Of a DNA stretch of 64,000 nt, positions 9,245 through 16,867 are shown one piece after another (positions within the stretch are counted from its first letter, which is position 1; each line of letters starts with the position of its first letter). This stretch comes from an uncultured delta proteobacterium (GTDB lineage Bacteria; Desulfobacterota; Syntrophia; Syntrophales; Fen-1087): assembly GCA_963709485.1 (NCBI GenBank), contig CAVPWE010000005.1:68012-132011 (forward strand), in the 5' to 3' direction. The notes beneath the pieces are model-generated. The model ran no database searches. It saw only the letters and a program-made list of their open reading frames with translations, and was not told the DNA's origin. Position numbers and translations under genes: made by a program.

Positions 9245-9380
9245 AAAAATGAAGCCGAAAACCTTCGGAAGGATAGCACCGGGCGCGCGCTTGTCACTTT
9301 CCGTTTGCCTTTTCACGGCGCTGATTCTCATCGGGGCGACCCTGCTCGTCGCGGCGCCCGCGGCGCAGGCGGCCCAGCAG

Positions 9381-10215
9381 ACCGGCACCTACACGGGGAA
9401 TGCGACGGACAACCGCGCCATCACCGGCCTGGGCTTCCAGCCCGACGGGGTGATCATCAAGGCCGCCACGGCCCAGTACGCTGTGATGCGGACCTCCACC
9501 ATGGCGGGCGACCTGACCAAGGCGTTTGTGGGCGGCACGGCCCTGCAGGCAAACGTCATCCAGTCCCTGGACGTTGACGGCTTCACCCTCGGCACCGACG
9601 CCCGGGTGAACGCAAACGGCGTTGTCTACCACTGGATCGCCTTCAAGGCGATCGCCGGGGAGATCGCGTTCGGCACTTACACGGGCGATGCCACCGACAG
9701 CAGGGACATCGCCGGGCTCGGGTTCCAGCCGGACCTCGTCTTCCTTCTGCCGGATTCGACGCAGAACGCCGTGGCCCGCTTCTCCTCGCAGAGCGGGGAC
9801 GCCAGCCTCTACTTCAGCGCCGCGGCGGCCTTCGCCGACGGGATTCAGGCCCTCAACGCCGACGGGTTCCAGGTCGGGACCACCGTCAACGCCAGCGCCA
9901 CCGTTTATCATTACGTGGCCTGGAAGTCCATCTGGGGAAAGCGGGTCATCGGCTCCTACACGGGAAACGGCGTGGACAACCGGAACATTTTGGGGCTGGG
10001 CTTTGATCCCAAGTGGGTCCTGATCAAGTCCGCGGCGGCCCGGGCCGGCGTGCACAAGCCGGACACCACCGGCATCGCGACGGACGCGACCCAGTATTTC
10101 ATCAACACGGCGAATTTCACAAACGGGATCCAGAGGCTCGACGCCGACGGGTTCCAGGTGGGCAACAACAACACGGTCAACGAGAACACCGTGACCTTTT
10201 ACTACGCCGCCTTCG
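9381..10215 (+). repeat. three tandem ~93-aa coding repeats (TYTGN/D..D.R.I.GLGFQPD...Y(H/Y)(W/Y)(I/V)A(F/W)K)
   Basis: TGTYTGNATDNRAITGLGFQPDGVIIKA / FGTYTGDATDSRDIAGLGFQPDLVFLL / IGSYTGNGVDNRNILGLGFDPKWVLIK, each ending in VYHWIAFK / VYHYVAWK / TFYYAAFA. Confidence 0.8.
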
Positions 10216-10217
10216 CG

Positions 10218-12553: not shown

Positions 12554-14470
12554 GCGCCCACCCCCTGCGTCCTGGCCTACGGCGAGGGGAACCTGATCAC
12601 GCCGCGCTACCGGTACTGGGACGGAACGGCCTTCGGAACGGAGCTGACCGCCCAGAGCGCCGACGATGTGATCAAATGGACCGTGCTCAAGGCCTCGCCC
12701 GTGGCCAACGAGATGATCCTGGGCGTCTATTCCAGCGCGACCAAGGCCCTCTACATCCAGACGCTGAGCGGCGGAACCTGGACCACCAACTGGAGTTCCG
12801 TCCTCGGCTACGACGGCCTGACGCGGGTCTTCGACATCGCCTACGAGCGGAACACAGGCGACGCCATCGTCGTCTTCGGCGACACGGACGGCAAACTGTA
12901 CTACCGCAAGCGGGTCGGAGGCGTCTGGGACAGCGCCGACCAGTCGACCGGCATCACACTGGACAACGATGCCGACTGGGTCCGGGCGGACATCCCACCC
13001 GACGAGCGACGACATCTTCGTGGCGACCAGCACCGAGGCCGCGTCCCTCTACGCGCTCCGCTGGTACGGCGCCGGCAACTACTGGGACAACGTCCTGAAG
13101 ACGACCGCCGGCGTCAAGAACAAGGACAAGGAAGGCTTCGACCTCGCCTTCGAGCGGGCCTCGGGCGACGCCTTCCTGATCTGGGGCGACGCCGACGCGG
13201 ACGTCAATTACCGCCGAGTTCACCACGGCCTGGCAGGCCGAGGCCACGGCCTATGCCGACATCGGCGACGATGTCTACTGGCTCAAGGCCGCCTACGACC
13301 CCACCGCCGCGAGCAGCAGCATCGCCATCGCCATGACCCTGGAAAATACAACTTCCGGGTTCGGGGCCTGGAACGGCGCGAGCTGGGTGGCGATGCCCGA
13401 TGCCATCCCATCGCCGCCCGACACCGTGACCAGCGCGGAATCGACGTGGCCTTCGAAGAAGGCACGGGCGGGGCGCTCTTCGCCTTCGCCACGGGTGCCG
13501 CGCCCACGCAGCTTTCCTGGCGGACCTGGTCTTCGGCCGGCGGCTTCACCGCCGCCGCCGCCGCGGCCGGCGCCACGGGAAACCTCAACTTCGTGCAGCT
13601 CAAGCCGATCCCCGGGAGCGACGATCTAATGGCCGTCTACGCCGATGCCAACGCTGATCTGTGGTACCGCTACTGGGACGGGTCGGCCTTCTCGCTGCCG
13701 AGCCCGGCGCCCGGGACGGCCCTGGAGACCACCTTATCGGAAAACGACAAAACGGAGGCCTTCTGCTTCGACTGCAGCGTCGCGTACACGCCCACGGCGA
13801 TCGACCTCCTTTCGTTCAGCGCCGCGGGGGCGAACGGGACCGTGCTCGTCTCCTGGCGGACGGCGCAAGAGGCCGGGACGCTCGGGTTCCACCTCTGGCG
13901 GGCAACGAGCGAGGGCGGGCCCTACACGAGGATCACGGCCACGGCCATCTCCGCGCTCACATCCGCGGTGCGGGGCGCCGACTACAGCTACACGGACGCG
14001 AACGTGACCGCTGGGACGCGCTATTACTACAAGCTGGAAGAGATCGAGACGATCGGCAAATCGACAATGTACGGACCCGTGGCGGCGGAATGGACCGCGG
14101 CCGGGGGCGCGATCCCGCTCGAAACCCCGGGCGACACGACGACCGTCACGCTCGGCGGCACGACGGACGGCGCGGGCACGCTCTCCGGAACGCCGGGGAC
14201 AATGGCCGCGGCCTGGAGCCCGCCCACGACCGCCGCGGCCTACAAGGTGCTCGTCACCGAAGAGGGCATCTACCGCCTCACTCAAGGCTGGCTCGCGTCG
14301 AAGGGCGTGAACGGCCGCCCTCGACCTCGCGCAGGTCCGCATGTACAGCCTGGGGCAGGAGGTGGCCATTCACGTCCATGACGGCAACGGGGACAATGTC
14401 ATGGACGGCGGCGATTATATCGCGTTCTACGGGACCCCCGTGACCGGGGAGGCGGCGAAGTACGCGAAGC

Positions 14471-16867
14471 CGGAACGTCTACTGGCTCACGGCAGCGGGC
14501 GGGACCGGCGCGCCGAAGCGCATGGAAGCGCGATCGAGGGGGCCCCCGTGCTCGGCGACGGCGGCGGCGACGCACCTCTACACGCTCCGCCATGAGGAGG
14601 ATTCGCTCTACATCCCGGATGCCGCCGGGGCGGACGCCGAGGACCGCTGGTTCTTCGAGGAAGCGCTGCCCGGGCCGGGCTACGGCGGGGGGCCGGTCGA
14701 CTTTGCCATCCCCACGCCGGGCGCGGCGGCGGGGCCGGGGACCCTGAGAATCCGCATGTACGGGATCGCGGACACGAGCCACGCAGTGGACGTCTCCGTC
14801 AACGGCGTGCCGGCGGGGACCGTCACGTGGGACGGCATGGCATACCACGAGGCCGTGATCAATGTGGCCGGTTTCCTCGACGGGGCCAACACGGTCACCC
14901 TGACCTGCACGAGCGGGACCGTCTCCACCCCCGACGGGGCTTACGTGGACCGGTTCGAGGCGGCCTACCCAAGGCGCTTCGAGGCGGCCGGAAGCGCGCT
15001 CCGCTTCGCCCACGCCGCCGGGTCGCGCTACCAGGTTTCCGGGTTCGCGGACGGCGGCATTCAGGCCTTTGACGTCACCCGGGCAGCCGACGCGGGGCGG
15101 GTCGTCAACGCCCTGATCAACGGCGCCGGCCCCTACACCCTCGACATGGAGCCCCAGGGCGCGACAGGCGAGCGGGCGTACCTCGCCGTCTCCGCCGGCG
15201 GCCTGAAGACCCCCGCGGACATCGTCCCGGACCGGGCCTCCGCGCTGTCCAGCATGGCCGGCGGGGCAGACTACATCCTGATCACGACGCGCGGCCTCGG
15301 CTGGGACACCGGCGGGACGCCCCGGCCCTGGCTGAGCAATCTGCTTTCCCTGCGGCAGGGCCAGGGGCTGCGGGTGAAGGCGGTCGACGTGGAGGACGTC
15401 TATGACGAGTTCGGCTACGGGCTGGCCACGCCCCGGGCCGTCCGGGACTTCCTCGCCCATGCCTATGCCAACTGGGCCCCTCCCGCCCCGAAGTACGTGC
15501 TGCTCGTGGGGGACGGCACCAACGACCCGAAGAACAACAACCAGGAGCCGGCCGAAGGCACGTTCGCCTACCTTCCCGCCTACCTCGGCTTCACCGCCTA
15601 CATGGGGGAAACGGCGAAGGACGACTGGTTCGGCCGTGTGAGCGGGAGCGGCTCCTTGCCCGACCTCCACATCGGCCGCCTGCCGGCGTCCGACCTGGCC
15701 CAGGCGGAGGCCATGGCGGGGAAGATCGTCGCCTACGAGCAGGCGGCGAACACGAAGACCTGGGAGCGGAACGTCCGCTTCGTCGCCGACAACAAGACCG
15801 CCGATTACGAGGCGATGTTCGAAATCATGAGCGACGATGCGGCCGCACTCGTCCCGACGCCGGGGATGAACGCCCCCGAGAAGATGTACCTGGGCAGCTT
15901 CGGGAGCGCGGCCGCCCTCAAGGCCGCGATCAAGGACCGGATCAACGCGGGGAGCCTGATCGTCAACTACGCGGGCCACGGCTGGTGGCAGCAGTGGGCG
16001 GAGGAGAACGTCTTTGAGAACGCGGACGTGGCCGGCCTTGCCAACGGCGCCAGACTCCCGCTCTTCCTGGCCATGACGTGCCTGAGCGGCTACTTCATCG
16101 ACCCGGAATCCTACGGCTGGCCTTCGCTGGCCGAGGTCCTGATGCGGGCCGGGGGAAAGGGTGCCGTGGCCGCGCTCATGCCCACGGGCATGACGGCGAC
16201 GGACGGCCAGTACATCCTGGACCGGGCCCTCTTCGACGCCCTCTTCAGGAAGGACATCCGCACCCTCGGCCCGGCCGTCGCGGCGGCCAAAAGTGCGCTG
16301 CTGGCAAGCGACGTGGCGTACCGGGGGGAGACGGCCGAGACCTTCCTCCTCTTCGGCGACCCGGCCACAAGGCTGAAGATCCCCATGCCCGGCATTCCCC
16401 AGGGGATCGCCGCCGTCGTCCAGAACGGCGCCGTGACCCTGACCTGGCAGGCGGCGCTCGACAGCGACGGGAACCCCGTCGCGGGGTACAACGTCTACCG
16501 GGCCGACGCACCGGACGGGGACTTCACGAAGCTGAACTGGACGCGGATCGCGGGAACGACCTACATGGACCAGCCGCCCGGTCATGACTGGTACTACGCC
16601 GTCGCCTCGGTGGACGGCAGCGGCTTCGAAAGCGCCAGAAGCCCGGTCCACTTCATCGACCTGTCCCTGACCGGCGACGTCAACGGCGACGGCCGGGTCG
16701 ACCTGGCCGACCTGATCACGGTCCTGAAGGTGATGGCCGGCATGGGCAGCGCCGACGTCACGGTCCGGCCCGAATACGCGACCTCCGGGGCGGACGCGAA
16801 CGGCGACGGCGTCGTCGGCATGGCGGAGGCGGCCTACATCCTCCAGAAGATCGGGGGACTGAGATAG
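14471..16867 (+). other. peptidase C25 (gingipain-like) catalytic segment of the giant ORF, single intact frame
   Basis: ADYILITT, YVLLVGDG, LHIGRLP, catalytic His context VNYAGHGWW (His codon 15977-15979) and Cys context LFLAMTCLSGYF (Cys codon 16079-16081). Confidence 0.7.
16676..16864 (+). other. dockerin-type double EF-hand-like repeat at the C-terminus of the giant ORF
   Basis: DVNGDGRVDLADLITVLKVMAG ... DANGDGVVGMAEAAYILQKIGG: two D.NGDG.(V/I) calcium-loop-like segments about 35 aa apart. Confidence 0.55.

Follow-up and report, generated by a model that had tools for sequence, protein, structure and literature searches.

We analysed a stretch of 64,000 nucleotides (nt; hereafter, the window) from an uncultured delta proteobacterium of the Syntrophales lineage Fen-1087 (assembly GCA_963709485.1, contig CAVPWE010000005.1, forward-strand positions 68,012 to 132,011). 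At window positions 9249-16867, on the forward strand, it holds a giant gene that is readable only across seven changes of frame. These frame changes are very likely uncorrected local errors of the consensus, that is, short indels, mostly single extra bases. Read through them, the locus would, with similarly high confidence, be a normal, intact gene consisting of a single open reading frame (ORF). Its product would be a giant secreted cysteine peptidase of family C25 (gingipain/PorU-like) that carries a dockerin at its C terminus and whose activity is predicted.

One gene across seven frame changes

Stop-to-stop ORFs and three-frame translations of positions 9000-17000 delimit one gene of about 2,537 codons, with its ATG start at 9249. 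In the six-frame translation, the coding text moves from frame to frame in the order F0>F1>F2>F0>F1>F0>F1>F2. The path is stitched by skipping a single base at 10425, 10537, 12995, 13215, 14316 and 14470 and by re-reading one base in the CCC at 13406-13408, and it yields 2,537 amino acids (aa) without a stop codon. A search with this read-through protein retrieved two orthologues, each in a single open frame, namely P0001 (2,396 aa; contig L011, Logan assembly of ERR4678645) and P0002 (2,728 aa; contig L012, JGI 3300035148). Contig L011 has the gene order of the window (era, NTP_transf_5, PqqD, radical SAM, S24-like peptidase, giant gene, small ORF, ScmC and UPF0182), with a DNA identity of 86-92%. 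Compared with its orthologues, the giant gene is of full length, and a three-way protein alignment showed its product to be 87% identical to the L011 protein. Both orthologues align unbroken over all seven junctions; in the 40 residues on either side of each, the window protein shares 25-40 with L011. This continuity of similarity, as judged from the aligned sequences, far exceeds chance. Since the orthologues pass straight through every junction, the locus is best described as one gene, of which the window copy differs by frame-breaking indels. A preliminary description of this DNA, made from its letters, had likewise read the ~7.6 kb as one gene with seven frame changes and a stop-free stitched path, and both statements hold.

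The predicted product comprises a signal peptide, three DUF7483 modules, three modules of ~135 aa flanking an unassigned domain of ~390 aa, a WDG-repeat region, the C25 peptidase, an FN3-like domain and the dockerin. Pfam searches detected DUF7483 in the first piece of the gene and, in the last, the dockerin together with a full-length match to Peptidase_C25 (PF01364, model positions 1-374 of 374, E 3.9e-77). The NYAGHGW (GHG) and AMTCLSG (TC) contexts of the C25 domain align with the equivalent motifs of PorU (PDB 6za2), which we take to be the sites of its catalytic His and Cys; on that assumption, both catalytic contexts are intact, as had been stated earlier. Identity with the type IX secretion sortase PorU itself was rejected, the scores lying far under the cut-offs of the NCBIfam PorU equivalog models (241 bits versus 420 for NF033707 and 139 versus 450 for NF052324).

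The ~390-aa domain that sits between the repeat modules (window 10685-11842) has no sequence match in Pfam or PDB. Its homologues, at 55-64% identity, come from Gammaproteobacteria and other metagenome-assembled genomes (MAGs; loci L013, L014 and L019). An AlphaFold2 model of this domain, built on a 6-sequence alignment, is unusable, with a predicted local distance difference test score (pLDDT) of 31.

Position and nature of the indels

The seven sites, all on the forward strand, were placed from a DNA alignment of the window with L011. One extra base is present at 10422-10425 (GGCGGCGGGCGCC), 10537 (GGGCTCCGAA), 12990-12995 (GGACATCCCAC, with the gap relative to L011 at C12990), 13215 (ACCGCCGAG) and 14470-14473 (AAGCCGGAAC), and one base is missing at 13406-13408 (GCCATCCCATC; GCCACTCCCATC in L011). 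The sixth change, at 14312-14316, corresponds to two bases fewer than in L011 or to one extra base combined with a natural difference of one codon. Most of the positions given in the preliminary description stand, with some refinement: the -1 change, set loosely at 13390-13430, is now placed in the CCC at 13406-13408 and, relative to L011, the extra base of the third junction may be C12990 and the change at 14316 is better described as two missing bases at 14312. The same applies to its account of six single extra C or G bases next to C/G runs: the skipped base is readable as C at all six skip sites, but the runs at the seven sites are only 2-3 bases long. Two G6 runs within the gene are intact. 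Junctions 1 and 2 are the only ones of the seven that fall in an internal repeat copy.

A further, hidden pair of indels compensates itself. Two extra bases at 14528 and one at 14551, in a G5C5 run, leave ~8 codons out of frame without a stop being met, and between the two positions the orthologue matches the other frame and not the open one.

Just upstream of the giant gene, the C-terminal tails of the S24-like peptidase (window 9120-9244; L011:5690-5823) lie in different frames, with a 4-base length difference at ~9181; either of the two frames may be the correct one.

Extension into neighbouring genes

Similar lesions were found on both sides of the giant gene. In era, on the forward strand, there is an extra base at 4713-4715 that is also absent from two genomes of the same genus (G001 and G002), and outside this site Era matches the intact L011 protein at 94% identity. 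Relative to both of these genomes, another extra base lies at position 2978 (forward strand), in the ATGA overlap between the stop of rnc and the start of the next gene; it removes the rnc stop and fuses rnc (RNase III) in frame with the following radical SAM gene. The comparison indicates that this apparent fusion is probably another consensus error. On the other side of the giant gene, the UPF0182 gene (18067-20835, reverse strand; Pfam match over residues 24-785) contains a hidden block at 18885-18962, where four extra-base indels (+1, +1, +2 and +2) within 80 nt restore the frame overall. Here the UPF0182 motif D.DPILKTY.KIFPGVF.KLADM, conserved in six relatives including G001 and G002, is replaced in the window by ~25 unrelated residues and can still be read in the two remaining frames.

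Altogether, the affected stretch (~2978-18962, ~16 kb) contains ~15 indels, of which 13 are extra bases and 2 are missing ones. The breaks are regional and not gene-specific, since the burst crosses gene boundaries into the core genes rnc, era and UPF0182. The statement in the preliminary description that the remaining coding sequence shows only one comparable event, in era, must accordingly be given up, given the compensating pair at 14528/14551, the block at 18885-18962 and the extra base at 2978. The right flank (21.5-31.3 kb, 9.8 kb) has no frame-breaking coding indel relative to G001, and relative to G002 it has only a pair of 7 and 14 bases (sum 21).

Most of the affected stretch is an accessory island of 12.7 kb (5389-18063), which includes NTP_transf_5, PqqD, radical SAM, S24-like peptidase, the giant gene, a 54-codon ORF and ScmC. 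The island is absent from G001 and G002, where UPF0182 comes ~100 nt after era, and is present and syntenic at the same place in L011. Contig L012 holds the same set (giant C25 gene, PqqD, ScmC, NTP_transf_5 and radical SAM), differently arranged.

In the UPF0182 gene, the ORF stays open across 18885-18962, so annotation would raise no flag there.

Frameshifts across the whole assembly

The assembly that holds the window (G000) has 3.02 Mb in 7 contigs and a completeness of 94.8%. Using a codon model derived from its long ORFs, we applied a joint two-strand Viterbi gene parse that permits frame changes, which recovered the era event and all seven junctions of the giant gene. Genome-wide, it made 236 frame-change calls, in 143 of which the previous frame remains open over 75 nt or more; these counts are approximate, as some low-margin calls are overlapping gene boundaries (for instance livM/livG at window 26515). 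Pfam domains run unbroken over called junctions in aroA, comEC, uvrC, ArsA and the genes for an acyl-CoA dehydrogenase, a sigma-54 activator and a glucan phosphorylase. The uvrC gene alone accounts for 8 calls within 1.8 kb, and Pfam domains confirm no fewer than 4 of these. Seven calls falling within 7.6 kb would have a probability of ~1e-7 to 3e-6 at the background rate, and the cluster in the giant gene is therefore genuine as a cluster.

This cluster is one of three hot segments in G000. The second (C1:354.6-359.3 kb; L032:6600-11400) lies in the core genome and is collinear with G001 and G002. A three-way alignment of an 18-kb core region of C1 showed 50 lineage-specific indels in G000, compared with 8 in G002 and 5 in G001, the latter two being short-contig relatives. 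Of the 50, 45 are not a multiple of three and 35 are single-base, with extra bases in the majority. The third hot segment occupies the last ~9 kb of C3 (387000-396202; L033:7000-16203), where GC content is 0.68-0.72, versus a contig value of 0.56. This segment lacks collinearity with the same-genus genomes; in it lie the uvrC gene, with its 8 frame changes, and a fragment of a broken trpS. From its composition and content, this end of C3 is probably chimeric, poorly supported and derived from another organism.

Within C1:354600-359400, the glucan phosphorylase and GH57 region has ~35 short G000-specific indels in 4.7 kb, a density at which gene calling fails.

Tests of decay and of function

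The best-surviving alternative, though an improbable one, is a real and recent pseudogene, in which the island or the exoprotein gene alone is being inactivated in the sampled population by at least seven genuine indels. The gene does lie in an accessory island without counterpart in the same-genus genomes, and such genes are often lost; moreover, local indel density is far over the assembly background. We examined this possibility with a relative-rate test, using L012 as the outgroup and counting branch-unique substitutions over 2,311 aligned codons. At codon positions 1, 2 and 3, respectively, we found 73, 57 and 157 substitutions on the window branch and 72, 70 and 157 on the L011 branch, with the same pattern upstream and downstream of the first frameshift. 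On these counts, the window gene has evolved at the same pace and with the same purifying pattern as its intact orthologue; the test thus showed no relaxed selection on the window branch, with no substitution excess and the third-position bias kept. In bacterial mutation accumulation, substitutions outnumber indels roughly 10:1. At that ratio, 7-9 genuine indels would imply ~70-90 neutral substitutions distributed equally among the three codon positions, whereas the observed excess is -12 (standard deviation ~24). The 2,537 codons contain no other lesions in the form of premature stops, truncations or large deletions, although the absence of stops alone is weak evidence (P ~0.16 for 70 neutral substitutions). 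Decay of the gene is further contradicted by the damage that the same burst does to era, rnc and the conserved UPF0182 motif, and by equally dense bursts in core genes elsewhere in the assembly. The usual indel bias in bacteria is towards deletion, the opposite of the insertion bias seen here.

Less probable still is that the indels are real and arose in an indel-only mutational burst over 16 kb centred on the island with its protease and its genes akin to those for ribosomally synthesized and post-translationally modified peptides (RiPPs), for example through local error-prone repair or replication. If such a burst were real, the giant protease and the adjoining core genes would be freshly inactivated.

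A functional origin of the frame changes, be it a phase-variable slippage locus, programmed +1/-1 ribosomal frameshifting or transcriptional slippage, can be given hardly any credence. Its only points are the stop-free stitched path and the same direction of six of the seven shifts. No simple-sequence tract, whether a long homopolymer or a tandem repeat, occurs at the seven sites, where the longest run is of 2-3 bases. The orthologues are in a single frame at every site, so that the shift is not conserved in them, and no motif is common to the six +1 sites. Identical kinds of shift also occur in era, aroA and uvrC. These observations effectively refute a functional reading and, together with the lack of relaxed selection, they leave without support the suggestion in the preliminary description that the gene is decaying or phase-variable. 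That the ORFs of 479, 957, 470 and 781 aa, which appear separately in the ORF list with start codons, are several separate genes is just as implausible, since similarity to the single-ORF orthologues is unbroken at each boundary, the boundaries cut domains and repeats, and neither L011 nor L012, in the orthologue comparison that had been proposed beforehand, has stops and starts, or separate genes, at the junction positions.

Probable consensus errors and their possible local cause

Consensus error fits the indels because they come without accompanying substitutions, are biased towards insertion and also affect essential genes. Poor consensus quality was among the explanations first offered for this locus and is the one that endures, given the entry of the burst into core genes, the similar bursts in housekeeping genes elsewhere and the lack of extra substitutions. 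The frame changes would, in this explanation, belong to an error-dense stretch of ~16 kb (window ~2978-18962) within a contiguous but indel-prone metagenome assembly, in which frameshifts would be scattered genome-wide and concentrated in a few hot segments.

Two local causes named together with poor quality did not withstand analysis. High GC was rejected, as the frameshift rate is flat over GC bins outside the hot segments; the orthologue, moreover, has the same GC as the window gene (0.678). Internal repeats were rejected too, with only two of the seven junctions in a repeat. The local cause probably lies in read support that is low or uneven, or in a mixture of strains around the 12.7-kb island, such as co-occurring strains that lack it. 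The hot segment of C1 lies in the core genome, so islands would not be the sole trigger.

Several points weigh against consensus error. The indels are known from assembled sequence, which bears on their read support only indirectly. The errors lie outside long homopolymers, the G6 runs being intact, unlike the classic nanopore pattern. Their density is far above the genome background and thus requires a local cause, for which the one proposed above is an inference. No near-identical copy was found in the searched collections that could arbitrate: a protein search with a 767-aa stretch over junctions 3-7 gave high identity only to the window's own piece, the exact DNA pattern around junction 4 had no match in metagenome contigs, and the genome contig search returned relatives at no more than 63% identity. 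There may also be a mixture, for example one real mutation among the errors. Even so, the underlying gene should almost certainly be treated as intact, and the frameshifts not as a real biological feature.

The value of these observations is chiefly cautionary. Annotation would split the giant protease gene into four to nine pieces, would call era, aroA, uvrC and others pseudogenes, and would report an rnc-radical SAM fusion that is probably spurious. Pairs of errors that restore the frame can also scramble 8-30 residues unnoticed in seemingly intact ORFs, for which UPF0182 and the pair at 14528-14551 are examples. The giant gene itself would be intact and would belong to a class of giant C25 peptidases that has received little study. 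It is found beside a RiPP-like maturation cluster in three lineages, and it is this association, and not the frameshifts, that makes the locus biologically interesting.

Comparison with known systems

Frameshifting indels, worse at low coverage, are known for long-read MAGs (proovframe, 10.1101/2021.08.23.457338; Cusco et al. 2021, PMC8103633; Sereika et al. 2022, PMC9262707). As in those cases, short indels split genes that are intact in relatives, essential genes are struck and completeness is lowered (94.8% for G000, in 7 contigs), and the effect would be stronger at places of poor read support. The errors in the assembly of the window differ in being heavily concentrated in a small number of 5-16-kb segments and in consisting mostly of extra bases in runs of 2-3 bases, instead of deletions in long homopolymers.

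The giant gene shares with phase-variable contingency loci, which change by slipped-strand mispairing, that it encodes a surface or secreted protein and that its frame changes occur at C/G bases. In contrast to such loci, it has no long homopolymer or tandem repeat and is affected at many sites instead of one, and the same kind of change is also found in housekeeping genes.

As for the product, it resembles PorU (PDB 6za2) and gingipain R (PDB 1cvr) of Porphyromonas gingivalis in its full-length Peptidase_C25 match and in the aligned GHG and TC contexts. Unlike them, the window protein is ~2,500 aa long, with DUF7483 repeats and an unassigned domain, and it has a dockerin where those proteins have a type IX secretion C-terminal domain. 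Its gene, furthermore, is located in a RiPP-like cluster of an uncultured organism.

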